A stretch of DNA of 64,000 nucleotides, from contig JAESRA010000069.1 of assembly GCA_016764895.1 (NCBI GenBank), positions 1,045 through 65,044 of the forward strand. The letters are read 5' to 3'. A program made the translations under genes and the position numbers. The first letter of the stretch is position 1. Each line of letters starts with the position of its first letter. The notes under the pieces are model-generated. The model had not been told where the DNA came from. It made no database searches and saw nothing but the letters and a program-made list of their open reading frames with translations. The stretch is from Phycisphaerales bacterium. Its GTDB lineage: Bacteria > Planctomycetota > Phycisphaerae > Phycisphaerales > UBA1924. Positions 12,330-44,301 of this stretch are shown here, in pieces.

Positions 12330-13322
12330 GTGATGAATATCAAGTTTGCTTCGATGTGTGCTTTGGTCGGACTTTGTGTTGTGAGTGCCTTTGGTGAAGA
12401 GGTTGTTGTCCAGAACGACAGTCTTACAGCCGGAGACAGCGCGAGTATCTGTCCGTGCTTTGTTGGTGGCGAAGAAGCCGCCGTCTGGCTGACATCGCCC
12501 TGTGATGGCTCGATCGTGGCGATTCAAATCTTCTGGAGATCACAATTTGGCGGAGCCCCGATATCGCTCGAAGATTCGATCATTGTCTACGAAGGGGGCG
12601 CGTTTCCCAATGTCGGCCCCGTCAAGAGCGAACTGCTCTCGCCCGCAATGATCGACGGCGGACTCAACGAGTTCCGGTATACCGATGAGAACCAAACAAT
12701 CCCGATCAACATCCCGGTGACCGCCGGCGAAGAGTTTGTCGTTTCGCTCAAGTTCTTTAACAACTCGACAGTATTTGGCCCCAGTATTCTCTTTGATGAT
12801 TCAGGGATCACGCCAGGCAAGAACGCAGTCAAAGTCAACGGCAACCTCTGGCAGTCAGCCGAATCGCTCGGGGTCACAGGCGACTGGATTATCCGTGTCA
12901 TAGTTGATTGTACAGGCGGTCTTGTTGGCTCGGTATGTCTCGAGAACGGCGGGTGTATTGATGGAATGACCGAAGAAGAAGCCGATTTACTCGGCGGCGT
13001 ATGGAGCGGCCCCGGATCAACATGTGCAGAGGTTCAATGTCTTGGTGCTTGCGAAATCCCCGCTACCGGAGCGTGCGTTCAGTTTGATCTGGCGACCTGT
13101 GATGTGGTTGGCGGCAACTGGTTCGGCCCCGGAACAACCGAGTGTGTCACCTCATGCCCGCCAGACATGAACATGGACGGCATGCTCGATTTCTTCGATA
13201 TTTCCGCATTCTTGACCGCATTTTCAAACCAGGACCCCGTCGCCGACTTCACAGACGATGGCCAGTTCGACTTCTTCGATATTTCCGCGTTCTTGACGGC
13301 GTTCGGGCAAGGGTGTCCATGA
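12330..13322 (+). CDS. secreted protein of unknown function with C-terminal 55-aa double EF-hand dockerin-like module (island gene A)
   Basis: Signal peptide MMNIKFASMCALVGLCVVSAFG (GTG 12330 / ATG 12333). Two Cys-rich C...GG-x-W-x-GPG-x2-C repeats. Terminal module at 13155-13319: CPPDMNMDGMLDFFDISAFLTAFSNQDPVADFTDDGQFDFFDISAFLTAFGQGCP. Confidence 0.85.
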   Translation: MMNIKFASMCALVGLCVVSAFGEEVVVQNDSLTAGDSASICPCFVGGEEAAVWLTSPCDGSIVAIQIFWRSQFGGAPISLEDSIIVYEGGAFPNVGPVKSELLSPAMIDGGLNEFRYTDENQTIPINIPVTAGEEFVVSLKFFNNSTVFGPSILFDDSGITPGKNAVKVNGNLWQSAESLGVTGDWIIRVIVDCTGGLVGSVCLENGGCIDGMTEEEADLLGGVWSGPGSTCAEVQCLGACEIPATGACVQFDLATCDVVGGNWFGPGTTECVTSCPPDMNMDGMLDFFDISAFLTAFSNQDPVADFTDDGQFDFFDISAFLTAFGQGCP

Positions 13323-13411
13323 CTCCTACGATCAAATAAGTGCCGATGTGTTGACGGCCTTGTGTAGAGGCACAAAATCCGTCTCCAGTGACATCCACGC
13401 AGGAGTATCAG

Positions 13412-15325
13412 ATGATGAGCACCTCTTCACTGAATGGTTTACTGTCACCGATTCGATTCGGAATATTGGCATGTGTGCTATCGACTCCTGTGCATGCGCA
13501 AGACCAGTTTGGGATCGATCAAGCAAAGGCAAGCATGGACGCGGCCGATGTTGCCCAGCCCCAGGCAGGCCCGCCGTTGTGGGAACCGAGCACGCCTACG
13601 CAGAACCCATACTCAGAATCCAAGCGTGTGCTTGGAAAAATACTGTTCTGGGATGAACAACTTTCCAGCGACAACACGATTTCATGCGGCACCTGCCACA
13701 TCCCCGCCAGCGGCGGTGCCGATCCCCGCCCTGGGCTTCATCCGGGATTCGACGAATCATTCTTAACCGTTGACGATGTGCTCGGCTCTCGGGGCGTGAT
13801 TCGTATGGATGAGATGGACGAGTACCAGCAGAGTGATTCATTTGGCCTTGAGGTGCAAGTGACAGGTCGCGTGTCGCAGTCCAACATGATGGGGATGTTT
13901 GCAGGGAGTTTGTTCTGGGATGGCCGAGCAGAACTGAACTTCGTCGATCCAGAGACCGGCGAGTTGCTGTTCCAGTCCGGTGTAGCCGGCCTTGAAATCC
14001 AAGCAACCGCGCCGATCTTAAACGAAATAGAAATGGGGCACGCCGGGCGAACATGGGATCAGGTCCGCGACAAGCTCGACCTGGTAAGACCCCTTGCGCT
14101 CTCAGACTCAATCCCGCCAGACATGCTCGCGGCCATTGGTGTCGATCCGACCTACGCAGAACTTTTCGAACTCGCATTCGGCGACCCAGAAATCACAGCC
14201 GTGCGGATCGCCTTTGCTATGGCAACCTACCAGCGGACGCTGATCCCCAACCAATCTCCATGGGACTTGTGGAACGACGGCGATGACGGAGCGATGACAT
14301 TTGAGCAGAAAGCCGGCTTTAGCCTGCTCCAAGCCTCGGCGTGTGGATTCTGTCACGCAGCACCAACCTTCAGCAACTTCGATCTTATGGTTGACGGCGT
14401 CCGCCCTCCATTCGAAGACATCGGCCGTCAGGCAGTGACCGGGCTGAGTTCTGATCGGGGCAAGTTCAAAACCCCATCAATACGAAATGTCGCCCTGCGG
14501 AACCGGTTAATGCACACCGGAGGGCTCGCCGACATCGACGACATCTTTGATTTCTATGGCCACCGCAACGGCCTCGTGCCCTTCTTCGATAACGCTCATT
14601 TTCTCGTGCGATCACCGATCTTATTTAGTGAATCAGGCGAGATCGCGGTCAAGGATTTCTTGGTCAACGCCCTCACAGACCCACGCGTCGCAAACGAGAC
14701 CTTCCCATTCGACCGTCCCGGGCTCTACACAGAACGGGCAGTGCCAAACCCCAAGATCATCGGCAGCGGCGATACCGGTTCGGGCGGCTTTATCCCCAAG
14801 ATGATCGCGGTGATCCCGCCGAACCTGGGCAACGATGATTTCAAGATCGGAGTTGATTTCGCGCTCGGCGGCGCCCAAGCATGGGTCGCGGTTTCTTCAA
14901 ATCCGCCCGTCGGTGGGGTTCTTCCTCAAGACGAGTTGATCGGACCGATCACACTCATCGGCATGGGCAACGGCGGCGGCTTCGGAACACTCGCCTACCC
15001 AATCGCCAATAACCCAGCACTCGACGGCCAACGCCTGTACATGCAGTGGATCATCTCAGACCCCGCCGGACTCAACAAAGGTGGCGATGGATTTGTTCGT
15101 TCACCAGTTGCGCAGCTGGATATATTCTGCACCGAAGCGGTCCCGTGTTCGGTTGCCTGCGCGGCAGATTTCAACGGCGACGGTTTATCGGACTTCTTTG
15201 ATATCGCGGCGTTCCTCTCTGCATTCTCCTCTGGGCATCCATCGGCGGATCTGAGTGGCGACGGATCATTCGATTTCTTTGATATTTCAGCGTTCTTGTC
15301 TGTATTTGGACAGGGATGCCCATAA
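13412..15325 (+). CDS. di-haem cytochrome c peroxidase (CCP/MauG family) with C-terminal dockerin-like module (island gene B)
   Basis: ATG 13412 follows AGGAG at 13401-13405. Signal peptide ...ILACVLSTPVHAQ. Two haem motifs, CGTCH and CGFCH, plus GKFKTPSIRNVALRNRLMHTG, typical of the bacterial CCP family. Module at 15158-15322. Confidence 0.9.
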   Translation: MMSTSSLNGLLSPIRFGILACVLSTPVHAQDQFGIDQAKASMDAADVAQPQAGPPLWEPSTPTQNPYSESKRVLGKILFWDEQLSSDNTISCGTCHIPASGGADPRPGLHPGFDESFLTVDDVLGSRGVIRMDEMDEYQQSDSFGLEVQVTGRVSQSNMMGMFAGSLFWDGRAELNFVDPETGELLFQSGVAGLEIQATAPILNEIEMGHAGRTWDQVRDKLDLVRPLALSDSIPPDMLAAIGVDPTYAELFELAFGDPEITAVRIAFAMATYQRTLIPNQSPWDLWNDGDDGAMTFEQKAGFSLLQASACGFCHAAPTFSNFDLMVDGVRPPFEDIGRQAVTGLSSDRGKFKTPSIRNVALRNRLMHTGGLADIDDIFDFYGHRNGLVPFFDNAHFLVRSPILFSESGEIAVKDFLVNALTDPRVANETFPFDRPGLYTERAVPNPKIIGSGDTGSGGFIPKMIAVIPPNLGNDDFKIGVDFALGGAQAWVAVSSNPPVGGVLPQDELIGPITLIGMGNGGGFGTLAYPIANNPALDGQRLYMQWIISDPAGLNKGGDGFVRSPVAQLDIFCTEAVPCSVACAADFNGDGLSDFFDIAAFLSAFSSGHPSADLSGDGSFDFFDISAFLSVFGQGCP

Positions 15326-15516
15326 TTTATTCGGCCCTGTTCATTATTGAATAAGGGTCGGCAGTATGCGATTTCCTTGCAACCGTGGGGCTTTTGAGCC
15401 GAAGATACAAAGTGGGCAATCGCCCTTGCATACGCTATTACACCGAGATTTTGAATCGGTAGTTAATTTGAAGACTGTTCAACAACCCAAAATGGATCTG
15501 TAGGGAGACCAATCCA

Positions 15517-16875
15517 ATGAAGCATCTTTTGTGTACATGTATTCTCGCCGCCGGAGCAGCCAGTGCTCATGGCCAGCTCTCAAGAGTGGTCTACGCCAAC
15601 GGCATCGACCGTCCTGTGTTTATGACCCACGCCGGTGATGACTCAAACCGGATGTTCGTCATCGAGCAAGAAGGTGCGATCCGAATCATTGATGCGGGCG
15701 GCAACCTGCTGCCAGCACCCTTCATCGATATTGACGCGATCGTAGTCGGCGGCAACAGCGGCGGTGACGAGCGAGGCCTCCTCGGTCTCGCGTTCCACCC
15801 AGACTACGCCAACAACGGCAAGTTCTATGTCAACTACACAGGAAGCGGTACAGCCACCCGCATCGCAGAATACCAGGTTTTAGCGGGTGATCCAGACATC
15901 GCCAACCCAGCCACGGCTCGGATCCTGATGACCATCGGCCAACCATTCTCAAACCACAACGGCGGCTGGATGGGATTCGGCCCAGACGGCTTCCTGTACA
16001 TCGCTACAGGTGACGGCGGATCGGGCAACGACCCAGGAAACCGCGCAGCCAATCTCGGCCAACTCCTCGGTAAAATCCTCCGCATCGATGTCGATACTCA
16101 AGACGCCGGGTTGGAGTACGGGATTCCAGCCGGAAACCCATGGGCCGACGATGGCGACCCCGGTACGCGTGCCGAAATTTGGCACTACGGCCTGCGCAAT
16201 CCCTGGCGGACAAGCTTCGACAGTGAAACCGGCGACATGTGGATCGGCGATGTCGGGCAAAATGCACGGGAAGAAGTGAATCACGATATCGGCAATGTCG
16301 GCGGCAAAAACTACGGCTGGCGATGCCGCGAAGGCTTCCAGGCAACCGGGATGGCATGTACCGCCCCCGATCCATGGACCGATCCGGTGCATGATTACCC
16401 ACTATCGGGCGGCAACTGCTCGGTCATCGGCGGGTTTGTCTATCGCGGATGTGAACTTGGTGAAGCCTATCAAGGAAAGTACTTCTTTGGTGATTACTGT
16501 GCCGGTACCATCTGGACTCTTGATCCAGACAACGGCTACGCCTTGTCAACCGAGTTTGACTTTGGCTTTGGTCTCTCCTCATGGGGAACCGACGAAAGCG
16601 GTGAGTTGTACATGGCCAACCTCTTCGGTGGAACAGTGTACAAAATGGTGAATACAAGTGCACCCGATGTGGACGAAAACGGGATTCCAGATGCGTGTGA
16701 ATCCTCGTGCCTGCCCGACATGAACGGCGACGAAACACTCGATTTCTTTGATATTTCAGCATTCCTGACCGCATTTTCAGCCGGAGATCTAAGTGCGGAT
16801 TTTACCGGTGATGGCGCACTCGATTTCTTTGATATCAGCGCATTCTTGACCGCGTTCGCCACTGGCTGCCCATAA
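15517..16875 (+). CDS. PQQ-dependent sugar dehydrogenase (soluble glucose/sorbosone dehydrogenase-type beta-propeller) with C-terminal dockerin-like module (island gene C)
   Basis: Signal peptide MKHLLCTCILAAGAASAHG. ERGLLGLAFHPDY, NHNGGWMGFGPDGFLYIATGDGG, LGKILRIDV, GLRNPWR, GDVGQNAREEVN and NYGWRCREG match the GSDH family. Module at 16708-16872. Confidence 0.9.
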   Translation: MKHLLCTCILAAGAASAHGQLSRVVYANGIDRPVFMTHAGDDSNRMFVIEQEGAIRIIDAGGNLLPAPFIDIDAIVVGGNSGGDERGLLGLAFHPDYANNGKFYVNYTGSGTATRIAEYQVLAGDPDIANPATARILMTIGQPFSNHNGGWMGFGPDGFLYIATGDGGSGNDPGNRAANLGQLLGKILRIDVDTQDAGLEYGIPAGNPWADDGDPGTRAEIWHYGLRNPWRTSFDSETGDMWIGDVGQNAREEVNHDIGNVGGKNYGWRCREGFQATGMACTAPDPWTDPVHDYPLSGGNCSVIGGFVYRGCELGEAYQGKYFFGDYCAGTIWTLDPDNGYALSTEFDFGFGLSSWGTDESGELYMANLFGGTVYKMVNTSAPDVDENGIPDACESSCLPDMNGDETLDFFDISAFLTAFSAGDLSADFTGDGALDFFDISAFLTAFATGCP

Positions 16876-16986
16876 CCAGTTTGTCGTTCCGATTTGCGAA
16901 ATCGCATATGTGAAGATAGAGCATATGTGAAAAAGAGAAGGTTTGGCGAGGTGTCTCGTTGCAGTGTGTCTGCTTTTGAATAGGAC

Positions 16987-17024
16987 GCTTTGCTGCCCGC
17001 TTTGTTGCCCGCTTTGTTGCCCGC
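16987..17024. repeat. 12-bp tandem repeat GCTTTG(C/T)TGCCC x3
   Basis: Three adjacent units at 16987-17022 in the C-D intergenic spacer, followed by the hairpin CCAGATCA-CTAC-TGATCTGG at 17027-17046. Confidence 0.9.
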
Positions 17025-17086
17025 ATCCAGATCACTACTGATCTGGTTGTGGGCGAACTTGCCGAACCTGTCTTTCTAGCCCGCGC

Positions 17087-17130
17087 CAGTGAATCCATGC
17101 CGGTGAACCCATACCGGTGAACCCATACCG
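17087..17130. repeat. 14-bp tandem repeat (C(A/G)GTGAA(T/C)CCAT(G/A)C) x3
   Basis: Units at 17087-17100, 17101-17114 and 17115-17128 (the last two identical). The repeat ends 28 bp upstream of the gene D ATG. Confidence 0.9.
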
Positions 17131-17157
17131 ACGACGCTCAATCAGGGAGTAAGTGAG

Positions 17158-18237
17158 ATGAGAAACATGTTTCAAAAATGTACAGTCAGCATCGGAATAA
17201 CACTGGCAACGCTATCAGGTACCGCCTTTGGAGATGAGTTCGACGGGGTCGTTGATTCCGTCGCATCTACCGCCGCTCTGTCAGGATCGGTAGAGATTCA
17301 CAACAACGGCATCTTGATCGGCGATTTCAACGCCGAGACAAACCCAACAGGCACCAGCACCATCCCAGGGCTCTTCGGCGGATCGGGCAACAACCCGATC
17401 GACATGCAACTCACCGGCGCAGTCAATACCGATCTCAACACCAACCCCACCGGCTCGATGGTACTCGACATCGACTTTGACCTACTCATCATCGACATCG
17501 AGAATCTCACACTCGATCTACTGGGCGGCCAAACCGGCGCAGCCCAGCCGACCGTCTCGATGATCTATGACACCTTCCGCTCCGTCAATCCAACATTTCT
17601 CTACTTCGGAGGGATTCCATTCGAATTCCCCATCGGCGATGCGTCAACCATCGATCAAGCCGTAGCCACGCAGACAGGCCCAGCCGCAGGCGTGCTCGTT
17701 GCATCTGGAAATCCCGATGTCTTCGACTTCACCATCTTGATCCCGGCAGAACTAGCGATCGAACTCACCCTTGGCTTCGGAGATTTCCAACCGCCAGATG
17801 ACGGGCTCGCACCACTCCCAATGGTCTTGCCTCTGACGGGAATTATCCAACGCATGGGCGATGGTTCAGTCCAACTAACCATGACCACCGAGACACAACA
17901 ACTCGAGCAGATCACACCGATTGAAGGCGTCACATCACCAGAGATTCCCTTCGAGCTCCCGACATTTGGAGCCGAAACAGCCGGGGTACTCTTTACGCTC
18001 ACTCCGGATGAACTGGCCGTCGGACTCAGCTACGGCTGGACACTCTTTGTCAATGGCTCGCCTGCGTCCTGTATCCCAGATTTCAATGGCGACGGCGAAC
18101 TCGATTTCTTCGATATCTCCGCATTCCTCACGGCATTCTCAGCCAGCGACCCAGCCGCCGATCTCACCGGCGACGGCGCGTTGGACTTCTTTGACATCAG
18201 CGCATTCTTAACCGCGTTCGCCGCTGGCTGCCCATAA
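17158..18237 (+). CDS. secreted protein of unknown function with C-terminal dockerin-like module (island gene D)
   Basis: GGGAG SD-like motif at 17145-17149. Signal peptide MRNMFQKCTVSIGITLATLSGTAFG. I recognise no catalytic motif. Module at 18070-18234: CIPDFNGDGELDFFDISAFLTAFSASDPAADLTGDGALDFFDISAFLTAFAAGCP. Confidence 0.8.
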   Translation: MRNMFQKCTVSIGITLATLSGTAFGDEFDGVVDSVASTAALSGSVEIHNNGILIGDFNAETNPTGTSTIPGLFGGSGNNPIDMQLTGAVNTDLNTNPTGSMVLDIDFDLLIIDIENLTLDLLGGQTGAAQPTVSMIYDTFRSVNPTFLYFGGIPFEFPIGDASTIDQAVATQTGPAAGVLVASGNPDVFDFTILIPAELAIELTLGFGDFQPPDDGLAPLPMVLPLTGIIQRMGDGSVQLTMTTETQQLEQITPIEGVTSPEIPFELPTFGAETAGVLFTLTPDELAVGLSYGWTLFVNGSPASCIPDFNGDGELDFFDISAFLTAFSASDPAADLTGDGALDFFDISAFLTAFAAGCP

Positions 18238-18272
18238 AGTTATTCCCAATAAAAATTCATAGATCACTCAAT

Positions 18273-18299
18273 CGACCGTTCATGTAACGGTCGGTTTTT
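18273..18299 (+). terminator. Rho-independent terminator after gene D
   Basis: CGACCGTT-CATGT-AACGGTCG stem-loop followed by GTTTTTA. Confidence 0.7.
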
Positions 18300-18431
18300 A
18301 TGTGTTTATTAGGCTGTATGGTCTAAAAACAAGGGATTATCTCCGAGTTTGGTCTTTGGAAAATGAGGTTTGTGTGCTATTCTTGTTATGCTCATAGGGA
18401 GTATTGCTGAGTTGAGTTTTTAGGAGAGAGA

Positions 18432-21400
18432 ATGATGAATCGGAAAGTAAATCTATCGGCATTGGTAATCGTGGCTTTGGCGGGTTCAAGTGCAGGGGCA
18501 CAGGTGATCGATTGGGCATCGGCTGTTGATGGCAACTGGAACGACGCCTTCAACTGGAGCCCGGCGAATGTTCCCAACCTGATTGGCGAGGACGCAGTGC
18601 TTGGGCTGGTCGGGGCGTACACCGTTCATACGATCAATAGCTTTACGATCGGATCGCTGACGCTTTCCAACCCTCTTGTAGTGCTCCAAATCGGGAGCAA
18701 CCAAACACTGATTTTGAACGGCGACCTGAACAACAGCGGAATTGTCAATGTCAATTTCCAAGGGACGATCTTCAATGCACACCTCAGTTTCAACACCGAT
18801 GCGACGATTGCCGGCAACGGATCGATCCTGCTCAATGCGCAGAGTGATCCGGGCGATGCGCAGATTTTGGCAAACGCATTCACCGTGACCAACGCAAGCG
18901 GGCACCTGATTCATGGCTCAGGTCATATCGCCGGCGCGATGATCAACTCAGGAAACATCATCGCCGATGACCCCGCCGGGGCCGGGCTGCGGCTGGGCGG
19001 AACGCTCACGCAGACCCCGGGCGGAAACGCCGGGGCCGATGCGGGGACGCTGTTGCTCGGCAATGGATCCATCACCACCGGCGGCGAACTGCTGTCCATC
19101 AACGGCGGTGTGATCTCGGTTCAAACTTCGGCAACCATCGGGAACATCATCAACTCCGGCGACATCGAAGTACCAGGACAAGGCTGGTCGCTGCGTATGA
19201 ACGGGGATGTCCAGAACAACGGCACCATCACGCTCAACTCAAACGGTGCAATATTCAATGCACATCTCTGGTTTGACGGCGCCACAACACTTGCGGGTTC
19301 GGGCAATGTAATGATGGTCAGCGCCGGCGACTTAGGCGACGCCCAGATTCTCACCAGCGGACTCTTTGATGGCACGATCGGCGGGAATCAAACCGTCGAG
19401 GGCAGCGGGCTCATCACCGGCGGATCCGATGGCACAATCGTCAACCTCGGCACGATCAATGGCAACGATCCGGCTGTGGGGCTGGGGCTTGCCGGGAACC
19501 ACAGCGGGGTCGGCGGCGGCGTATATCGGTCTGACGGCGGATCGATTATTCTCCGCAACGGGCTTGTCCTCAACGGCGGAACCTTTGATTCCTCAGGCAC
19601 CGGCATCGTGGAAATGACAAGCAGCGGCATCGCCACACTCTCCAACATCACCAACCTCGGCCAGATGGGTGTCCGCGGGCAAGGCGGCTCGATCACGCTG
19701 ACTGGGCCAATGACCAACAACGGGACTCTGACACTCAACAGTAATGGGGCAATATTCAATGCTCATCTGCGGTTCGGCGCAAGCACCGCCATTGATGGTT
19801 CGGGCACAATCAACATGGCCACCGCAGGAAGCTCTGGTGATGCACAACTCTTCACAGACGGCCCATTCATCGGCACGATCGGAGCCAGCCAGACCGTACA
19901 AGGATCAGGACAAGTCGATGGACGCAGCGACGGCACCATCGTCAACAACGGCACGATCAACGGCAACGACCCTGCATTCCCACTCGAACTCCGCGGCAAT
20001 CACACCAGCTCCGGCATGTACCGCTCAGATGACGGCGTGCTTGCACTCATCAATGGGGCAAACCTTGACGGCGGCACCTTTGATTCCTCAGGCACCGGCA
20101 TCGTGGAAATGACAAGCAGTGGCATCGTCACACTCTCCAACATCACCAACCTCGGCCAGATGGGTGTCCGCGGCCAGGGCGGGAGCATCAGTCTTGCGGG
20201 GCCGATGACCAATGATGGGACATTGACCATTAACTCGAATAACAATGGGTTCAACGCCCACCTCCGGTTCGTGGCTGATACGGCGATTACTGGATCGGGC
20301 ACTGTCCGAATGAAGATGGCGGGAAGCGATCTTGGTGATGCCCAGCTCTTTACCGATGGCAAGTTCTTCGGTGTGATCGGCGCGAACCAGACAGTCGCGG
20401 GCAGCGGGATTGTGGATGGACGCTCGCTGGGTACGATTGTGAATGATGGAACCATCAACGGCGACGACCCAGTCTTTGAGTTGCGGCTCCAAGGGAACCA
20501 CGACGGGACCGGCGGCGGTGTGTACCGCTCCGACGACGGCCTGCTCGGGTTATCCAACGGGTTGGTCATGAACGGTGGAACCTTTGATTCTTTGGGCACC
20601 GGTATTGTGGACATGACCACCAGCGGCACCGTGATGCTCTCGAACATGACGAACTTCGGAACGCTGGGTATCCGTGGCCAGGGCGGGGTTGTTGGTCTTT
20701 CGGGTCCTCTGACCAATAACGGTACGATTCTCATCAACTCCAATGACAATGGGTTTAATGCTCATATCCGGTTCTTCGCGGCCACCGAGATCAACGGGAC
20801 CGGGACGATCAATATGGAGTTGACGGGGAGCCTTGGTGATGCTCAGATCCTCAATGACCAGGGGTTCATCGGGACCATTGGCAGTGGGCAGACGATAACA
20901 GGTTCTGGAATGATTGTTGGTGAGATGAACATGAACGGGATATTTGATCCGAGTTCAGACGAGCGACGGTTCCATCTGGCCGGTGACACAAACCTCTCGG
21001 CGACCTCTGGGTTCGTTGCCGATCTTGGCGGGTTGCTGATAGGCGAGTTTGACCGGCTGACTATGGGCGTCGGCGACACCATGAATCTTGACGGCACGCT
21101 GACGGTCAATCTTGATGCCGGGTACTTGCCGGAGTTCGGAGATTCATGGGACATCATCTCTGGAGGATCAGTCACCGGCGAGTTCGCCTCTGAGGTTGTC
21201 CCCGAATCCGGGATCGGCCTGGTGTACAGGGTAATCTACGAGCCAAGCCGTGTATTTGTTGTGTTAACCTGCGCAGCGGATCTGACGGGTGACAATGTTC
21301 TCGACTTCTTCGACATCTCGCTGTTCTTAAACTACTTCACCTCAAATGATGTCAGGTCAGATCTCAACGGCGATGGCGTCTTTGACTTCTTTGATATTTC

Positions 21401-21437
21401 ACTGTTCCTTCAGATATTTAACGGGGACTGTTTGTAA
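18432..21437 (+). CDS. large secreted repeat protein (autotransporter-associated beta-strand-repeat-like) with a divergent dockerin-like module (island gene E)
   Basis: Signal peptide MMNRKVNLSALVIVALAGSSAGAQ and an N-terminal GNWNDAFNWSPANVP motif. Five copies of a ~165-aa unit are marked by (I/G)FNAH(L/I)-x-F. The 97-nt segments 19581-19677 and 20076-20172 differ at 2 positions. Terminal module at 21270-21434 is the variant CAADLTGDNVLDFFDISLFLNYFTSNDVRSDLNGDGVFDFFDISLFLQIFNGDCL. Confidence 0.85.
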   Translation: MMNRKVNLSALVIVALAGSSAGAQVIDWASAVDGNWNDAFNWSPANVPNLIGEDAVLGLVGAYTVHTINSFTIGSLTLSNPLVVLQIGSNQTLILNGDLNNSGIVNVNFQGTIFNAHLSFNTDATIAGNGSILLNAQSDPGDAQILANAFTVTNASGHLIHGSGHIAGAMINSGNIIADDPAGAGLRLGGTLTQTPGGNAGADAGTLLLGNGSITTGGELLSINGGVISVQTSATIGNIINSGDIEVPGQGWSLRMNGDVQNNGTITLNSNGAIFNAHLWFDGATTLAGSGNVMMVSAGDLGDAQILTSGLFDGTIGGNQTVEGSGLITGGSDGTIVNLGTINGNDPAVGLGLAGNHSGVGGGVYRSDGGSIILRNGLVLNGGTFDSSGTGIVEMTSSGIATLSNITNLGQMGVRGQGGSITLTGPMTNNGTLTLNSNGAIFNAHLRFGASTAIDGSGTINMATAGSSGDAQLFTDGPFIGTIGASQTVQGSGQVDGRSDGTIVNNGTINGNDPAFPLELRGNHTSSGMYRSDDGVLALINGANLDGGTFDSSGTGIVEMTSSGIVTLSNITNLGQMGVRGQGGSISLAGPMTNDGTLTINSNNNGFNAHLRFVADTAITGSGTVRMKMAGSDLGDAQLFTDGKFFGVIGANQTVAGSGIVDGRSLGTIVNDGTINGDDPVFELRLQGNHDGTGGGVYRSDDGLLGLSNGLVMNGGTFDSLGTGIVDMTTSGTVMLSNMTNFGTLGIRGQGGVVGLSGPLTNNGTILINSNDNGFNAHIRFFAATEINGTGTINMELTGSLGDAQILNDQGFIGTIGSGQTITGSGMIVGEMNMNGIFDPSSDERRFHLAGDTNLSATSGFVADLGGLLIGEFDRLTMGVGDTMNLDGTLTVNLDAGYLPEFGDSWDIISGGSVTGEFASEVVPESGIGLVYRVIYEPSRVFVVLTCAADLTGDNVLDFFDISLFLNYFTSNDVRSDLNGDGVFDFFDISLFLQIFNGDCL

Positions 21438-21521
21438 GCAGAACCGGTCGTTTTGCGTATACTGGATATTTGAAGAGAGTTCAATAAGATTCTCGATACC
21501 AACTTTGTACAGGAGAGAGAA

Positions 21522-22340
21522 ATGAAAGCAATTTGTGTATTGTGCCTAGCCGGCGTTGTGTCAACTGCCTCAGCCCAATCAATGCTGGACTTTACGATCG
21601 ACCCAACTCAGTCCTCGGTTGATCTGACCATCGAGATCGATCTCGGCGGGCTTGGTGGAGATACCGATAGTGATACCTCGTCGCTCTCAGGATTTGTCCA
21701 AGCGGCTCCAGACGATCCCGAAGCCGCCTCTTCTCTCTGGTTGCACGACTTCTTTACTTCAATGGACTCAGACCTGACCTACAACTGGTCGCTCGGATTC
21801 TTATCCACAGCCGACGCGAACTTGGTCGGCGGGACAGTCGAGTACGCAAATCCAGGCATTATTCTCGGCCCAGTACCCGTAGTCGCTGGTGACTTCGAGT
21901 TTCCAAGCGTCTCGGTCATTCTTGGCGGAGTGATGACGGTCAACTACAACATCTTCCTATTCGGTTCAGGGTCCGAGGTTATTGATCTATCAACCCTCGC
22001 CCCATCAGACACGGTCTATTCAGGATCAGTGGTTTCCAGTAATGGCGTGATGACCATGACCAGCACAGTCCCGCTCGCCGGAACTCAGCCATTGGTTATT
22101 GATGGGAGTGTACTCGGAGATGTGATTTTCAGCGGCACCGCGACCATGGTCGCCACCGCAGACATCCCCGATTGCCCCGCAGACTTCACCGGTGATGGCG
22201 TGCTCGACTTCTTTGATATCTCAGCATTCCTCACGGCCTTTGGCAATCAAGAACCCGCCGCCGATATGAACGCTGACGGAGCATGGGATTTCTTTGACAT
22301 CTCAGCATTCCTGACCGCGTTTAGTACCGGATGCCCTTAA
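21522..22340 (+). CDS. secreted protein of unknown function with C-terminal dockerin-like module (island gene F)
   Basis: Signal peptide MKAICVLCLAGVVSTASAQ, a ~200-aa body with no motif I recognise, and the module at 22173-22337. Confidence 0.8.
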   Translation: MKAICVLCLAGVVSTASAQSMLDFTIDPTQSSVDLTIEIDLGGLGGDTDSDTSSLSGFVQAAPDDPEAASSLWLHDFFTSMDSDLTYNWSLGFLSTADANLVGGTVEYANPGIILGPVPVVAGDFEFPSVSVILGGVMTVNYNIFLFGSGSEVIDLSTLAPSDTVYSGSVVSSNGVMTMTSTVPLAGTQPLVIDGSVLGDVIFSGTATMVATADIPDCPADFTGDGVLDFFDISAFLTAFGNQEPAADMNADGAWDFFDISAFLTAFSTGCP

Positions 22341-22534
22341 GAGATATACACATCGTTTATCTTGGGTATCGGACGGAAATAACACGGACAGACCTGACTA
22401 ATCCGACAGGCAAGAATATCCCGTATTTCGGGGCGATTTCTTGCATCCAGTTACTGGTCTGGGGACAATAGTAATGTGGAAAGACCCGATCGGGTCTTAG
22501 AGATGAATGCACGAAACATCCAGGAGGTTGTGCG

Positions 22535-24460
22535 ATGAGAATTCACCGGAGCGGTATCGCCGCATATTTTAAGCGGTCTTGTATGGCAGCAGGGCTGCTG
22601 GCTTTGGCTGGGTCGTCGTCGATCTCGCTGGCGGCACCAGTCCCAACAACGATTGAAGATTTCTTCCTTCCAGGCACCCAACCCGAAACCATCAACCACC
22701 CCATCGCCGACGGCAACAACTGCGCCGCATGCCACTCAGTACCAGAGCATGATTTCGATCCCAACGAAGGATGGGTTGCATCAATGATGGGCCAGTCGAT
22801 GCGCGACCCAATCTTTCACGCCGCCATGTCCGTCGCAAACCAAGATGTCGCCTTTGCCGGCGATCTATGCCTCCGTTGCCACACCCCAGGCGGTTGGCTC
22901 GCCGGACGCGCCGGCAACACAAACCCCGCCGACCCCTTGGATCCCGATGGATCTGATGGCTCGCTGCTCCAGCCAATCGACTTCCAAGGCGTGTCGTGCA
23001 ACTTCTGTCACCGCATGGTCGACCCAGAATACAAACCAGGCGTGAGCCCCATCGCTGACATTGAAGTATTCGACGGCCTCAAAGGCGCAAACCCAGGCAT
23101 CGAAGATACAACACCAAACCCACACTCGGGCGCATTTGTCGTCGACTTCTTCGATCGCCGAAGAGGCCCGTTCGACCTAGGGCCCGACTTCTTTTACCAT
23201 GCCTGGGAACTCTCGCCCTTCCATCGTGACTCAGCCATGTGCGCAACCTGCCATGATGTTTCCAACCCAGCATTCTCCAAACAACCCGACGGAACCTACG
23301 CGCTCAACGCCCTAGGCACTCCCCACGAAACATTCGACAAGTACGACATGTTCCCCATCGAACGCACCTCATCAGAATGGGAACAGAGCGATTTTGCAAT
23401 CGCACCCATCGACATGAGCGGAAGATTCGGCGGCGACAACCCAATGGTTTCAAGCTGTCAAGATTGCCACATGCCAGACCAGAACGCCAACGCCTGCCGT
23501 ATTGATCCAACCAAGCGTCCCGACATGCCACAGCACGCATTCAACGGCGGCAACAACTGGGTCATCAACGCAGTCCGGTCGCTCTACCCAGACCTTGAAA
23601 CAGGTCTCGACGCCACCATGGCCGCCGATTCAATCGCAAGAGCCGAATACATGCTCGTCAACGCCTCTGATCTTGAACTCTCAGAAGACGGCTCAACACT
23701 GACTACGCGGATCATCAACCAAACCGGGCACAAACTCCCCACCGGCTACCCAGAAGGCCGCCGAATGTGGATCAATGTTCAGTTCTTGGACAAGTCAGGA
23801 GTACTCGTCCAAGAGCATGGCGCCTATGACAGCGCAACAGCCATACTCTCGCAAGGCGACACAAAAGTATACGAAGCCCATCTCGGCGTAGACGCAGCGG
23901 TCTCAGCCCTGACCGGAATCCCCGAAGGCGTCGGCTTCCACTTCGCCGCCAACAATGTCTGGATCAAAGACAACCGCATCCCGCCCCGCGGATTCACCAA
24001 CGCCGGGTTCGAATCAGTCCAAGCCGCCCCGGTCGGATACTCCTATATAGATGGTCAATACTGGGACGACACCGATTTCACCATCCCAGCCGGCGCGACC
24101 CAAGCCGAGGTCCGCGTCTACTTCCAACTCGTCAGCAAAGAGTACATCGAGTTCCTCCGCGACGAAAACGACCAAACCGGTGTTGACCCTCTCAACCCAA
24201 GTACCGGCGAGATCGCTTATGCACAATGGGTACTCCACGGCAAGAGCCCCGTCGTCGAAATGGACTTCATGACCATCGACATCATCGGCGGCTGCCCCGC
24301 AGACTTCAACGGCGACGGCGAAGTCGACTTCTTTGATATTTCAGCGTTCCTCAGTGCGTTCTCAAGCCAGCATCCATCGGCAGACATCACCAACGATGCC
24401 CAATGGGATTTCTTCGACATCTCGGCATTCCTGACCATGTTCAGTGCAGGATGTCCATAA
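22535..24460 (+). CDS. multihaem (five CXXCH) c-type cytochrome with C-terminal dockerin-like module (island gene G)
   Basis: AGGAGG at 22522-22527 and a signal peptide. Haem motifs CAACH, CLRCH, CNFCH, CATCH and CQDCH, plus GHKLPTGYPEGRRMW. Module at 24293-24457. Confidence 0.85.
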   Translation: MRIHRSGIAAYFKRSCMAAGLLALAGSSSISLAAPVPTTIEDFFLPGTQPETINHPIADGNNCAACHSVPEHDFDPNEGWVASMMGQSMRDPIFHAAMSVANQDVAFAGDLCLRCHTPGGWLAGRAGNTNPADPLDPDGSDGSLLQPIDFQGVSCNFCHRMVDPEYKPGVSPIADIEVFDGLKGANPGIEDTTPNPHSGAFVVDFFDRRRGPFDLGPDFFYHAWELSPFHRDSAMCATCHDVSNPAFSKQPDGTYALNALGTPHETFDKYDMFPIERTSSEWEQSDFAIAPIDMSGRFGGDNPMVSSCQDCHMPDQNANACRIDPTKRPDMPQHAFNGGNNWVINAVRSLYPDLETGLDATMAADSIARAEYMLVNASDLELSEDGSTLTTRIINQTGHKLPTGYPEGRRMWINVQFLDKSGVLVQEHGAYDSATAILSQGDTKVYEAHLGVDAAVSALTGIPEGVGFHFAANNVWIKDNRIPPRGFTNAGFESVQAAPVGYSYIDGQYWDDTDFTIPAGATQAEVRVYFQLVSKEYIEFLRDENDQTGVDPLNPSTGEIAYAQWVLHGKSPVVEMDFMTIDIIGGCPADFNGDGEVDFFDISAFLSAFSSQHPSADITNDAQWDFFDISAFLTMFSAGCP

Positions 24461-24566
24461 CAATCTTTCCTTATTCGGGCCTCAAAGGGTCCGAGTAGGC
24501 TTTAACAATCCGCAATATGCCCGAGTCGTTTGGGTGCTGCAGACTGTTTGACATCTGGAGGTCGAT

Positions 24567-27500
24567 ATGCGGCTCAAGCTTCTCAATGGTTCGGTTTTTT
24601 CAACGACTCTGACGACCGCCATCGTCCTCACCAGCGGGCTCGCCGCCGCAGCACCCGTCCAGTGGAAAAACACCGCCGATCCAGCACTACACAGCGCCCG
24701 GCTCAGCCACCAGTCCCCAAAGTCTGTCCTCCAATCAGCCGCCGCCCTCAACAACCATTTGAGCAACGACGGGTATGTCTTGGTGCAACTTTCTAAAACA
24801 CCCGACAAATCCGCTCGCCAAGCATTCATCAATGACGGGCTCGAACTGCTCAGCCCAGTAGGCGACAACACCTACTTCGCCCGCGTCAGTGCCAACGCCG
24901 ACGCCGCTGTTTTTGAGACACGCCTTATCGACGCCGGCCAAATCACCCGCAGCCACAAACTCCACCCATTAATCCAAAACGACGAGATGCCATCATGGGC
25001 CATCGTCGGCAGCGACACCGTCAAAGCAATCAGCGGGACTATCGAAAACTACACCGTCGCGGCCTATGTCATGATGCACTCAGATGTAGATATCGCCTCA
25101 CCAGAAATGGACAAACTTCTCAAGTCATACAAAGGCACCATCCGCTCGGTCGTGATGTCAATGAACACACTGGTCGTCGAGATTCCCTACCAGCAACTCA
25201 AAAAACTCGCAGACGACGGACGCGTTCAATGGATCGAGCCACCGCTCCCACCATTGGATACCACAAACGCATCCAACCGCGTGCTCACCCAAGCCAGCAT
25301 CGCCCAGTCAGCACCATATTCGCTCGACGGCACAGGGGTCACCGTGTTCGTCTATGACGGCGGATCAATCCGCGCCGCCCACAACGACTTCTCAGGCCGC
25401 GTAACCAATATCGACTCCACCGCAACAAACTTCCACGCAACCCATGTCGCCGGCACCATCGGAGGCGACGGCAGCACCAACATCAACAACCGAGGCATGG
25501 CGCCCGGTGTCAATCTTCTCGGGGCCGGCTTCCAAGTTCCGGGCGGATTGAGCGAAGGCTTCTTGTACACCGATCCGGGTGACATGGAATCCGACTACGC
25601 GATGGCACTATCCCTGGGCGCATCAATCTCAAACAACTCCATCGGCTCCAATGTCGCCCAGAACGGATACCCATGCGCCTGGCACGGCGACTACGGCATC
25701 ACCGCAGGTGTCATCGACAATATCATCCGCGGATCACTCGGCGATCCCATCACCATCTTCTGGGCAGCCGGAAACGAACGCGGAAACGGTCGCTGCGGCA
25801 CCGGCTATGGCACAACAGCACCTCCCGGAAACAATAAAAACGCAATCTCCATCGGGGCCGTCAACTCCAACGATGATTCGATGACCAGCTTCTCAAGTTG
25901 GGGCCCATCAGACGACGGCCGCATCCGCCCCGTCATCTCAGCACCCGGCTGCCAGAGCGGTTCAGACAACGGCGTCACATCCACCGGCGACGGATCAAAC
26001 ACACAATACATCACCCTGTGCGGAACCTCCATGGCCTCGCCAACAGCAGCAGGTGTCGCCGCACTGATCCTCCAAGACTTCCGAGTCCAGTTCCCAGCAT
26101 GGGGCGACCCATCAAACCAACTCATGAAAGCCATCCTGATCGAAGGCGCTGTAGACATCCTCAATACCGGACCAGACTTCCAAAGCGGCTACGGCTCGAT
26201 CCGCGCAGTCAATAGCATCGACTTCATGCGCACCGGAAACTTCAAAGAAGAAACAATCGACCAAGGCACCTCATCAACCTTCACGGTCACTGTCAATCCG
26301 GGCGACCCCGTCTTCCGCGTCACCATCGCATGGGATGATCCCGCCGGCGCTCCCAATGTATCGCCCGCCCTGGTCAACGATCTGGACCTGATCGTCACAG
26401 ACCCAAACGGTGTTCGTCATTATCCATGGACGCTCAACCCAGCAAGCCCAAGTGCAGCAGCGGTCCGCACACAAGAAGACCACCTCAACAATGTCGAGCA
26501 AGTCTTTGTAGAAAACCCAGCATCGGGCACCTGGCAAATCCAAGTGCTGGGCACCTCAGTTTCAGATGGCCCGCAATCCTTCGCGCTCACCTCAGCACTC
26601 GACCTCGGCGAAGGGCTCCTCTCGATCTCACTCGCTGATGCAGCACCCGAACTCATTCCGCCCGGAACCCCAATCGAGGTTCTTGCATTTGTCAACGAAG
26701 GGATCGACACGGTCATTCCCGGATCAGTCCAGCTCAACTACCACTACGCCCCAGGCGGATTCATCTCAGTCCCAATGAGCGACAACGGAGACGGCTCCTT
26801 CTCAGGAACCGTTCCCGGCGCAGACTGCGGGCAGTTCATCGAATACTACATCTCCGCCAGCGGCGTAGTCGCCGGCTCGGTCTTCTCACCACCACTTGGC
26901 GCAAGCGGCCCAACCCACACCCAAATAGGTGAAATCAAAATCGTCCTGACAGACAACTTCCAAACCGACAACGGCTGGTCCGTATCAAGCGACACAACAG
27001 ACGGCCAATGGACCAGAGGCGTTCCCGTAAACTGTTCAACCAGAGGCGCACCGGCTGCAGACTCCGACGGCTCAGGACAGTGCTGGATCACCGACAACGA
27101 TGCCGGAAACTCCTGCAACTCGGATGTTGACAACGGCACAACAATCCTAACCTCACCAATTTATGACATCTCCAGCGGCGGAGAATTCTCCTTCGACTAT
27201 TGGTACTCAGACATCGCCACCGGCGAAGTCAACGGCGACGAATGGGCCGTCGAAGGCTCAACAGACGCAGGAAACAACTGGACCCGCCTGCGAACCTCCA
27301 CCACAGTATCCCAGACATGGCGGAGCGATACCATCACCGTCGGCCAAGAAATCGCCGCATCATCGACAATGCGGTTCCGCTTCATCGCCAACGATGTGGG
27401 CACTCAAAATGTCATCGAAGCAGGCCTCGACAATGTCCAGATCACACGCTTCGTGTGCGATGAGACAACCGGCTGCATCCCAGACTTTACAGACGATGGG

Positions 27501-27641
27501 ATACTGGACTTCTTTGATATTTCTGCGTTCTTAAGTGCGTTTGGAAGCGGTGATCCAGTCGCCGACATCAACGGCGACGGCACGCTGGACTTCTTCGACA
27601 TCTCCGCCTTCATCGCCGCCTTCAACGCCGGCTGTCCATAA
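24567..27641 (+). CDS. S8 subtilisin-like serine protease with P-domain-like and MAM/jelly-roll-like domains and C-terminal dockerin-like module (island gene H)
   Basis: Signal peptide. Catalytic triad contexts VFVYDGG (Asp), HATHVAGTIGG (His) and GTSMASPTAAGVAALIL (Ser). Followed by RVTIAWDDPAG...NDLDLIVTDPNG and DNFQTDNGWSV...GLDNVQI. Module at 27474-27638. Confidence 0.9.
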   Translation: MRLKLLNGSVFSTTLTTAIVLTSGLAAAAPVQWKNTADPALHSARLSHQSPKSVLQSAAALNNHLSNDGYVLVQLSKTPDKSARQAFINDGLELLSPVGDNTYFARVSANADAAVFETRLIDAGQITRSHKLHPLIQNDEMPSWAIVGSDTVKAISGTIENYTVAAYVMMHSDVDIASPEMDKLLKSYKGTIRSVVMSMNTLVVEIPYQQLKKLADDGRVQWIEPPLPPLDTTNASNRVLTQASIAQSAPYSLDGTGVTVFVYDGGSIRAAHNDFSGRVTNIDSTATNFHATHVAGTIGGDGSTNINNRGMAPGVNLLGAGFQVPGGLSEGFLYTDPGDMESDYAMALSLGASISNNSIGSNVAQNGYPCAWHGDYGITAGVIDNIIRGSLGDPITIFWAAGNERGNGRCGTGYGTTAPPGNNKNAISIGAVNSNDDSMTSFSSWGPSDDGRIRPVISAPGCQSGSDNGVTSTGDGSNTQYITLCGTSMASPTAAGVAALILQDFRVQFPAWGDPSNQLMKAILIEGAVDILNTGPDFQSGYGSIRAVNSIDFMRTGNFKEETIDQGTSSTFTVTVNPGDPVFRVTIAWDDPAGAPNVSPALVNDLDLIVTDPNGVRHYPWTLNPASPSAAAVRTQEDHLNNVEQVFVENPASGTWQIQVLGTSVSDGPQSFALTSALDLGEGLLSISLADAAPELIPPGTPIEVLAFVNEGIDTVIPGSVQLNYHYAPGGFISVPMSDNGDGSFSGTVPGADCGQFIEYYISASGVVAGSVFSPPLGASGPTHTQIGEIKIVLTDNFQTDNGWSVSSDTTDGQWTRGVPVNCSTRGAPAADSDGSGQCWITDNDAGNSCNSDVDNGTTILTSPIYDISSGGEFSFDYWYSDIATGEVNGDEWAVEGSTDAGNNWTRLRTSTTVSQTWRSDTITVGQEIAASSTMRFRFIANDVGTQNVIEAGLDNVQITRFVCDETTGCIPDFTDDGILDFFDISAFLSAFGSGDPVADINGDGTLDFFDISAFIAAFNAGCP

Positions 27642-27659: not shown

Positions 27660-27706
27660 AAAAAAGAAGCCGGGCACGGATCAATTCCGTGCCCGGCCTT
27701 GTTTTT
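27660..27706. terminator. bidirectional Rho-independent terminator between convergent genes H and I
   Basis: A-run, then GCCGGGCACGGA-TCAAT-TCCGTGCCCGGC (12-bp perfect stem), then CTTGTTTTT. Confidence 0.8.
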
Positions 27707-30122: not shown

Positions 30123-30201
30123 GAGTCTTCGTCTCCTAGAAGTTGCCGAGGTGAGTCTCGCGCCTCGGGTTCAGGTATGTGTTGTTGTCAAGTATGATCT
30201 A

Positions 30202-32832: not shown

Positions 32833-33265
32833 TTGTTGGTCTCTTTCCTTATTGAGATGGCCAAGCCTGGGGCTCGCTGTATGTCCGATAAAAAGCCGCA
32901 TACGCAATGATGCACTTGCACCCAGAACCAACTGAGCGACCACGCACACAATGCCCGAATTTTGCCCCGAAATCAAGGCAAAAACCCCTTTAGTACCCCA
33001 GAATCACATGATTCAGGCGTACCCGCGAGCATCTCGGACCCTTCCTCCAGAAGAGCCTAAGAGTTCACACCATCAAGGTCTGAGAACCAGTCCTGTTTCT
33101 CGTCCTGTTTTTCGTCTTACTTTTTCAACACTGAATACATCAGTCACCATCATCAGGACCGATAACAGCAAGTGCCACACAAATCCAGCACCGTCCTACT
33201 CTTCGCATCCCAGCACCCGCTGGTTGCAGATATCGGGCGATTCCACCCCATTCAAACCTAAACAA

Positions 33266-36519: not shown

Positions 36520-36591
36520 ATTGGGCAGTCTATGCGTATGGAATTGCCGAGCCGACGAACCCAAGCCGGGTCAGGGCGGTACAGTGTAGAG

Positions 36592-44265: not shown

Positions 44266-44301
44266 AAGTTTCGTGTATAGTCATTGAAACGGAGATTATT
44301 A

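Follow-up and report, generated by a model that had tools for sequence, protein, structure and literature searches.

In this study, we examined a 64,000-nucleotide stretch of a Phycisphaerales bacterium genome (GenBank assembly GCA_016764895.1, contig JAESRA010000069.1, positions 1,045 to 65,044 of the forward strand; hereafter the window), in which ten contiguous genes (A to J) encode proteins that end in the same type of 55-residue tail. Three of these genes are related to known redox proteins, namely a di-haem protein of the cytochrome c peroxidase (CCP)/MauG superfamily (B), a six-bladed propeller resembling sugar dehydrogenases (C) and a penta-haem cytochrome (G). A first-pass annotation of the sequence had proposed that a common dockerin-like tail would join these three proteins into an assembly of dehydrogenase, electron wire and peroxidase. 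The observation is real and non-random, and its interpretation over-reads a generic tag. It appears rather probable that the tail is a dockerin-like anchoring module used throughout the secretome and binding a common putative receptor in the envelope, with B, C and G being three of its ten carriers in this gene island. The redox trio would share the tag because nearly every protein of the island and of the secretome carries it, and not because it forms a dedicated electron-transfer chain.

The tail follows the pattern C-x52-C-P-stop in B, C and G. It had been taken as identical among these proteins, which could not be upheld, and it is not restricted to them; what remains is that all three carry the same 55-residue module. 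A six-frame motif scan placed ten contiguous carriers between positions 12330 and 32976, eight on the plus strand (12330-27641) and two on the minus strand (27723-32976) (Table 1); according to Pfam, the seven non-redox carriers are three S8 subtilases (H, I and J) and four proteins without family assignment (A, D, E and F). The tails of B, C and G have 36-40 of 55 residues in common in pairwise comparison (65-73%), and the mean identity of all ten is 66%. All ten passed the curated cutoff (29 bits) of the NCBIfam model NF041540 ('GC-type dockerin domain-anchored protein', dockerin_GC), with end-to-end matches of 36.7-49.2 bits, and the E-values for B, C and G (5e-11, 5.5e-12 and 1.5e-12, respectively) are far beyond chance. 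Nine tails end in GCP and that of gene E in DCL. The spacing between the two Cys residues is 53 in the island tails, except that in gene I an upstream shift of the first Cys by one residue makes it 54. Each half of the tail consists of a 12-residue loop (D at positions 1, 5, 9 and 12, and N, T or S at position 3) followed by an amphipathic helix (FFDISAFL..F), and the canonical loop pattern D-x-N/T/S-x-D-x3-D-x2-D was present in all 20 loops of the ten tails. Conservation is highest at the hydrophobic faces of the helices and not just at the calcium ligands. Thus, judged from its sequence, the tail is dockerin-like in its logic, as had been suggested before, and it belongs to NF041540 and not to Pfam Dockerin_1.

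With regard to fold, a profile of the ten tails was compared with the PDB, and the best matches were dockerins (5lxv_B at 8.8e-4, then 2jnk/2ozn, 2y3n_B, 8ajy_B and 5k39_B), with marginal scores. An AlphaFold2 model based on 114 sequences (predicted local distance difference test, pLDDT, 85) contained two helices at model residues 20-31 and 47-59, and its best Foldseek matches were also dockerins, 2vn5_D (template-modelling (TM) score 0.55/0.60, root-mean-square deviation 2.7) and 4fl4_D, with E-values of 3.9-8.7. Matches of the tail to Pfam EF-hand models were sub-threshold only. Taken together, the predicted structure suggests that the tail is probably dockerin-like in fold as well.

The module could also be observed in other arrangements. 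A secreted protein of 742 amino acids, encoded by an open reading frame (ORF) at 44284-46512 on the plus strand, contains an internal dockerin-like pair, DVDMDGQITIQD...DTNNDGLIDQDD, at 45151-45294. This module is more classical in its dockerin likeness (NF041540 39.4 bits) and represents an eleventh, non-terminal carrier in the window; it is followed by about 400 residues, comprising a stretch rich in Cys and a Gly-rich low-complexity region of about 330 residues. In addition, some proteins elsewhere (P0121, P0122, P0125 and P0128) consist of 5-15 dockerin-like modules in tandem, with Cys residues on either side of each module.

The tail family extends far beyond this island. By pattern search and tblastn, with one genome per species, 261 copies were confirmed, almost all of them in metagenome-assembled genomes (MAGs) of Phycisphaerales or Planctomycetota, and 140 distinct ORFs ending in the tail were collected from 75 genome loci. 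Three single MAGs had at least 39, 36 and 27 distinct copies, respectively. An exhaustive profile hidden Markov model search of 1.84 billion cluster representatives (50%-identity clusters) returned 18,159 matches at E<=1e-3 and 2,821 at E<=1e-10, and the source, where named, was almost always Phycisphaerales. Among the top 142 representatives, the end GCP-stop was found in 118, a Cys-Cys spacing of exactly 53 in 115 and two canonical calcium loops in 114. The cargo of the 140 locus ORFs was varied, including S8 (12) and M10 (7) peptidases, FG-GAP types (~11), LVIVD (5) and DUF7453 (5), together with M12, M14, trypsin, PAD, CBM56, propellers, P_proprotein and LTD. Redox cargo was limited to CCP_MauG (5), GSDH (4) and DHOR (1), and these counts stem largely from orthologues of this very island; among 84 cluster representatives independent of the island, which carried FG-GAP_2 (15), LVIVD (14), propellers, PMP repeats, Ig domains and a few peptidases, no redox cargo could be identified. 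In Phycisphaerales MAGs, the name that NCBI gives to orthologues of G is 'GC-type dockerin domain-anchored protein', and our literature search found no paper on the 'GC-type dockerin' and nothing that combined dockerin, Planctomycetota and sorting. It should be noted that two tail fragments labelled 'Laminaria digitata' (P0052 and P0087) probably reflect Phycisphaerales contamination of a brown-alga assembly. Considering that the tail is present on seven non-redox neighbors and on thousands of unrelated secreted proteins of Phycisphaerales, it provides no evidence for a dedicated redox complex, and the earlier proposal that the common tail defines such an assembly is not supported.

Analysis of the tail within and between genomes provided further information on its possible role. 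Within one genome, tails on unrelated cargo had a mean identity of 59-79%, and it was only 35-45% when the window and its close relatives (window-type genomes) were compared with CP060234 or JAJDDO. The G orthologues of CP060234, JAUIES and JAJDDO retained 58-62% identity in their cargo, yet their tails were of other flavors, such as 'AAPFG.LNLQDVFAYL' and 'AEP.GVLDL.DV' (NF041540 38-61 bits). In many lineages, other residues take the place of the loop ligands at positions 3 and 5 (D-L-A-A-P-F-G...), with an even higher NF041540 score (60.6 bits). At identical tail residues in the window, synonymous codons matched at a fraction of 0.49 compared with 0.41 expected from codon usage, on which ground recent gene conversion was rejected as the source of the likeness; codon matches being near random, the similarity is held by selection on the protein. 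Tails that are uniform within a genome and divergent between lineages would be expected if all tails of a genome had to fit one common partner. Thus, the concerted, lineage-specific evolution of the tail points to one shared putative receptor.

As an anchoring module, the tail might act as follows. First, each protein would be exported via the Sec pathway, and B and G would be loaded with haem in the periplasm, as suggested by their signal-like N-termini and CXXCH motifs. The N-termini of B, C and G, for which signal peptides had been claimed before, show a hydrophobic segment followed by an AxA-like site (a heuristic assignment and not that of a dedicated predictor), and the proteins indeed look exported. 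Second, the tail would fold into a pair of helices with an EF/F-hand Ca2+ loop ahead of each, according to the sequence and the AlphaFold2 model. Third, a disulfide clasp would probably connect the invariant first Cys with the penultimate Cys. Finally, the tail would bind non-covalently to one common envelope receptor (cohesin-like or other), by which a large secretome of varied composition would stay attached to the cell, a step suggested by the concerted evolution described above. Beta-propellers, adhesin-like proteins and peptidases would make up most of this secretome, with redox enzymes as a small minority.

Such a module would resemble known dockerin systems in part. The tail is a plain member of NF041540, from which it shows no difference, and even distant lineage variants match this model. 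Like type I dockerins (PF00404; for example, 2vn5_D, 4fl4_D and 5lxv_B, the best profile and fold matches), it has a duplicated unit of ~22 residues with a 12-residue calcium loop and a helix, and it lies at the C-terminus of secreted proteins. On the other hand, it differs from them in being sub-threshold in Pfam, in its two flanking invariant Cys residues and fixed GCP end, in having the helix face FFDISAFL in place of Ser/Thr recognition pairs, in cargo that is not carbohydrate-active and in calcium ligands that are degenerate in many relatives; moreover, a cohesin partner is not known. The published idea that comes nearest is the 'planctosome' hypothesis for Nemodlikiaceae, in which dockerin-tagged M12B and M14 peptidases were proposed to sit on a cohesin-bearing surface anchor (Andrei et al. 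2019, ISME J, PMC6461901), and which also involves LTD and proprotein-convertase P-domains (PMC6461901). The same class (Phycisphaerae) is concerned in both cases, and M12, M14, P_proprotein and LTD cargo occurs on GC-type tails; however, the planctosome model builds on Pfam-detectable cohesin and dockerin modules and did not include redox cargo, whereas no cohesin was found among the window ORFs scanned. Papers on anaerobic methanotrophic archaea (ANME) report abundant dockerin and cohesin domains, with dockerins on substrate-binding and S-layer proteins, and a role in the adhesion of multihaem cytochromes is a speculation there.

Several points weigh against anchoring of this kind. The tails score 12.3-16.7 bits (E 0.008-0.2) with Pfam Dockerin_1, which is below its threshold of 22.9, and the Foldseek match to dockerins lacks statistical significance (E 3.9, for a very small domain). 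The canonical calcium loop is absent in 52 of the 111 tail-bearing G homologues, and the lineages of CP060234 (locus L078) and JAJDDO (locus L080) have lost the canonical ligands and are still NF041540 members; with the ligands lost in many members, calcium-dependent docking could not be a universal mechanism. The window ORFs scanned included neither a cohesin nor a scaffold protein. Furthermore, the cell-surface location of the tail proteins is an assumption, and haem proteins of the families of B and G are usually periplasmic. Finally, the strictly terminal position and the fixed GCP end fit a sorting signal more than classical dockerins.

The main rival explanation is just this, namely that the tail is a C-terminal sorting signal for a dedicated secretion or attachment machinery, similar to the C-terminal domain (CTD) of the type IX secretion system (T9SS) or to PEP-CTERM, in which case it might be cleaved or covalently modified at the penultimate Cys and would not be a stable docking module. 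We consider this unlikely, while giving it serious weight. The exact C-terminal position with the fixed G-C-P-stop end (118 of 142 representatives) would suit such a signal, whereas the copy within the ORF at 44284-46512 is internal, with 400 residues after it, and the tandem arrays are ill-suited to a terminal signal. The very large and varied secretome of carriers, the dispensability of canonical calcium ligands in many lineages and the word 'anchored' in the curated NCBI name are also in favor of sorting, and concerted lineage-specific evolution would fit co-evolution with a sorting machine equally well. However, the tail has neither a transmembrane helix nor a basic cluster in its sequence, unlike the signals of sortase, exosortase and rhombosortase, and its predicted fold is an ordered, dockerin-like two-helix F-hand pair and not the beta-sandwich of the T9SS CTD.

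The original proposal, a redox chain held together by the common tail with C as sugar dehydrogenase donor, G as penta-haem wire and B as H2O2-reducing peroxidase, seems very improbable to us. It is true that all three proteins look exported, bear tails of one family and are encoded in one island, and it is chemically plausible for electrons to pass from a quinoprotein via a c-type cytochrome to a peroxidase of the di-haem type. However, the tail has no specificity for such a chain, being present on the seven non-redox neighbors and on thousands of other proteins.

With respect to B, the motifs reported earlier were all found (CGTCH at residue 100, CGFCH at 319 and FKTPSIRNV at 360), FWDGRA is present at residue 176, and the protein matches Pfam CCP_MauG (PF03150) with 114.5 bits (cutoff 25.6). 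Two CXXCH motifs and the inter-haem Trp (FWDGR) were present in all 120 homologues. In gapless HMMER alignments, Tyr390 of B corresponds to the axial Met of known peroxidases (Met258 of the Nitrosomonas enzyme 1iqc and Met275 of the Pseudomonas enzyme 1eb7), and a Tyr occupies this position throughout the island orthologues and paralogues (eight of eight) and in 119 of the 120 homologues from databases. B therefore lacks the Met axial ligand of the high-potential haem by which bacterial di-haem cytochrome c peroxidases are recognized. MauG-type enzymes are distinguished by a His/Tyr-ligated haem, and MauG/BthA-type enzymes use H2O2 for oxidizing a protein substrate and are not cytochrome-fed peroxide sinks. 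With a MauG-type Tyr in place of the peroxidase ligand, the assumed function of B as a peroxide-reducing sink is doubtful. B shares with MauG, BthA and MbnH the CCP_MauG fold family, the two CXXCH motifs, the Trp of FWDGR and a Tyr at the axial-ligand position of the six-coordinate haem, equivalent to MauG Tyr294. It differs from these enzymes in an insertion of ~70 residues that parts its two haem motifs, in a further domain of ~190 residues and in the tail. It lies far below the cutoffs of its best NCBIfam matches, MbnH (TIGR04039; 112.4 versus 362.85 bits) and MauG (TIGR03791; 107.9 versus 443.85 bits), and belongs to neither. The alignments place B in a distinct clade of the CCP/MauG superfamily, and it is probably not a simple peroxidase. 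The NCBI label 'cytochrome c peroxidase' on the B orthologues, a Phycisphaerales family with the Tyr, the insertion and the extra C-terminal domain, is likely to be imprecise.

No gene for a known substrate protein was identified near B. Wherever the island includes B, gene A adjoins it, in the order A-B or B-A; A orthologues were found next to B in loci L003, L006, L009, L024 and L028, with B upstream of A in the latter two. JAJDDO, which lacks B, has up to three A-sized genes in tandem (332, 349 and 336 amino acids), of which BLAST confirmed the first alone to be A-like. The MauG-like B could have A as its substrate or partner.

For C, described before as a pyrroloquinoline quinone (PQQ)-dependent sugar dehydrogenase, the domain assignment stands (Pfam GSDH 124.7 bits, cutoff 25). 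C has the six-bladed GSDH propeller in common with the soluble PQQ aldose and glucose dehydrogenases (Asd/YliI and sGDH), and it contains HNGG and RNPWR motifs. However, its closest solved relatives are the propellers of Hedgehog-interacting protein (HHIP; best PDB match, 5e-49), far nearer than the proven PQQ enzymes (bacterial Asd and sGDH, 1e-16 to 1e-8), and its score with the subfamily model TIGR03606 was 50.6 bits (cutoff 434.55). The ORFs scanned across the 64 kb of the window included no pqq genes. PQQ dependence of C would be a guess at the family level, and to annotate it as a PQQ dehydrogenase is likely to go too far.

Gene G encodes exactly five CXXCH motifs, as noted before, at residues 63, 112, 155, 236 and 308, and these are invariant in 53 homologues. 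Whereas a single-sequence search of the PDB gave nothing useful for G, its AlphaFold2 model (pLDDT 82.5, predicted TM score 0.82) had one significant PDB match in Foldseek, the Thermochromatium tepidum cytochrome c552 (5ZE8; E 2e-11, probability 1.0, target-normalized TM score 0.61), and a profile search gave weak collinear matches, including CQxCHMP and H..PTG.P. The PTGYP motif of G (Tyr405) aligns to PTGAP of c552, and the Tyr is present in 104 of 119 homologues. Cytochrome c552, Geobacter ExtKL and the sPHCs of cable bacteria form one family (PMC11976967), and ExtKL (=MccSep), its one characterized member, has been reported as a periplasmic polysulfide-reducing selenoenzyme with selenocysteine U325 in a D-G-U-P loop and a haem-ligating C239 (bioRxiv 10.1101/2025.11.18.688581). 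PTGYP would lie at the place of this catalytic loop. G is similar to the penta-haem family (c552, ExtKL/MccSep and sPHC) in its five CXXCH motifs followed by a C-terminal Ig-like domain and in the collinear motifs. It is unlike them in its marginal sequence similarity (20.6 bits with the ExtKL model NF040886, cutoff 250), ~200 additional residues, the tail, the Tyr in PTGYP and a single free Cys (Cys321). An MtrC/OmcA-like outer-membrane cytochrome was considered and rejected (PF22113 and PF14522 sub-threshold), with the c552 fold being preferred. The predicted structure marks G as a c552/ExtKL-type cytochrome and not an MtrC-like wire. G thus need not be the passive wire that had been assumed, as its fold family includes a periplasmic catalytic enzyme.

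Genomic linkage of the three genes argues partly for the redox chain, since at least five related genomes (OFTM189, MAG_29, HXMU1429-2, UBA3190 and JB052; 48-88% identity) retain all of B, C and G in the island. However, the entire island, and not the redox genes alone, is syntenic in OFTM189, MAG_29 and HXMU1429-2; in UBA3190 and JB052, it is syntenic with the order changed to B-A-C-F-D-E-G. The linkage is lost in more distant genomes: JAJDDO retains A, C, E, F and G and has no B within 10 kb, and CP060234 and JAUIES have neither B nor C within 10 kb of G. In the window itself, a strong terminator-like hairpin with T-run directly downstream of D (Table 1) separates the block A-D, with B and C, from the block E-H, with G. 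Orthologues of E lie upstream of G in loci L012, L028 and L080, and in general the composition of the island is heterogeneous and differs between genomes. No small cytochrome was found among the window ORFs scanned.

It could also be supposed that the tail is an autonomous Ca2+-binding, disulfide-clasped module that stabilizes or solubilizes its cargo without any specific partner, which the two canonical EF-hand-like loops and the tandem arrays would allow, but a partner-less module is not expected to diverge in concert across cargo while staying uniform per genome, its helix faces are the most conserved part and not just the calcium ligands, and it persists in many lineages that have lost these ligands, so that we regard this as very improbable. 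A combination of anchoring and redox function, in which the tails assemble much of the Phycisphaerales secretome on one co-evolving receptor, as a non-cellulosomal display system of the 'planctosome' type, and the island places B, C and G side by side within it as an extracytoplasmic redox module, is in our opinion a long shot. If true, it would be the first natural dockerin-organized electron-transfer assembly and would carry the cohesin-dockerin principle over from the degradation of polysaccharides to electron transfer; the earlier statement that such an assembly had not been described was borne out, as our literature search found no dockerin-tagged di-haem peroxidases (nothing on dockerin together with cytochrome c peroxidase) or cytochromes.

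The features of the island are listed in Table 1.

Table 1 Genes, motifs and hairpins of the tail-bearing island (positions in the window)
Feature	Position	Strand	Description
Gene A	12330-13322	+	330 amino acids (aa), Cys-rich (16 Cys), secreted; tail 13155-13319; NF041540 43.5 bits; no Pfam match
Gene B	13388-15325	+	645 aa, di-haem CCP/MauG superfamily; tail 15158-15322; PF03150 114.5 bits, NF041540 42.8 bits
Gene B, haem motifs	13685-13699, 14342-14356	+	
Gene B, FWDGRA	13913-13930	+	
Gene B, FKTPSIRNV	14465-14491	+	
Gene B, Tyr390	14555-14557	+	
Gene C	15517-16875	+	452 aa, six-bladed-propeller GSDH/HHIP-like; tail 16708-16872; PF07995 124.7 bits, NF041540 45.9 bits
Gene D	17158-18237	+	359 aa; tail 18070-18234; NF041540 49.2 bits; no Pfam match
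Terminator-like hairpin and T-run	18270-18296	+	11-pair stem, then TTTATGTGTT; directly 3' of D
Gene E	18432-21437	+	1001 aa, repetitive, adhesin-like; variant tail 21270-21434, end DCL; NF041540 36.7 bits
Gene F	21522-22340	+	272 aa; tail 22173-22337; NF041540 48.9 bits
Gene G	22535-24460	+	641 aa, penta-haem cytochrome with C-terminal Ig-like beta-sandwich; tail 24293-24457; NF041540 47.7 bits
Gene G, CXXCH motifs	22721-22735, 22868-22882, 22997-23011, 23240-23254, 23456-23470	+	
Gene G, Cys321	23495-23497	+	
Gene G, PTGYP	23738-23752	+	
Gene H	24567-27641	+	1024 aa, S8 subtilase; tail 27474-27638; PF00082 119 bits, NF041540 42.9 bits
Bidirectional terminator-like hairpin	27667-27699	.	12-14 pair GC-rich stem, T-runs on both strands; between convergent H and I
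Gene I	27723-30122	-	799 aa, S8 subtilase; tail 27726-27890; PF00082 143.6 bits, NF041540 41.8 bits
Gene J	30202-32976	-	S8 subtilase with Reelin-subrepeat-B-like domain; tail 30205-30369; PF00082 132.6 bits, NF041540 46.4 bits

Some gene starts deserve comment. For gene B, an alternative ATG start at 13412 corresponds to the Joint Genome Institute (JGI) gene call. The start of gene J is uncertain because JGI calls on related contigs are 876-899 amino acids long, and translation probably begins further downstream than the first TTG; the longest ORF begins with this TTG and contains the repeat QANFRQANFRQANFR, followed by a second signal-like segment from M73. Internal repeats could be seen in the translation of gene E. 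The window matches JGI metagenome contigs, and the reference genomes nearest to it are MAGs of Phycisphaerales, OFTM189 having a protein identity of 80-90%. The flanks of the island in the window carry housekeeping genes (rho, ptsI, RNase E/G, dxr, trpE, pdxJ, a murein ligase, nuoD and nuoF) and several ORFs without Pfam match, and an ORF at 36532-38697 on the plus strand encodes an exported protein of 721 amino acids with a Pro-rich linker and no Pfam match. Over positions 1-64000, GC skew is positive up to ~12-14 kb, near zero up to ~22 kb and then increasingly negative (-0.4 at the end), with the Gly-rich ORF at 44-46 kb as the sole exception; this change from plus to minus could indicate a replication terminus region.

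Thus, the tail of B, C and G belongs to a very large (at least 18,000 protein clusters), highly stereotyped and already catalogued family, with which a large part of the secretome is tagged in marine and freshwater Phycisphaerales. The identity of its putative receptor would explain how peptidases, adhesin-like proteins and a small number of haem enzymes are retained on or within the envelope of these abundant, particle-associated planctomycetes.

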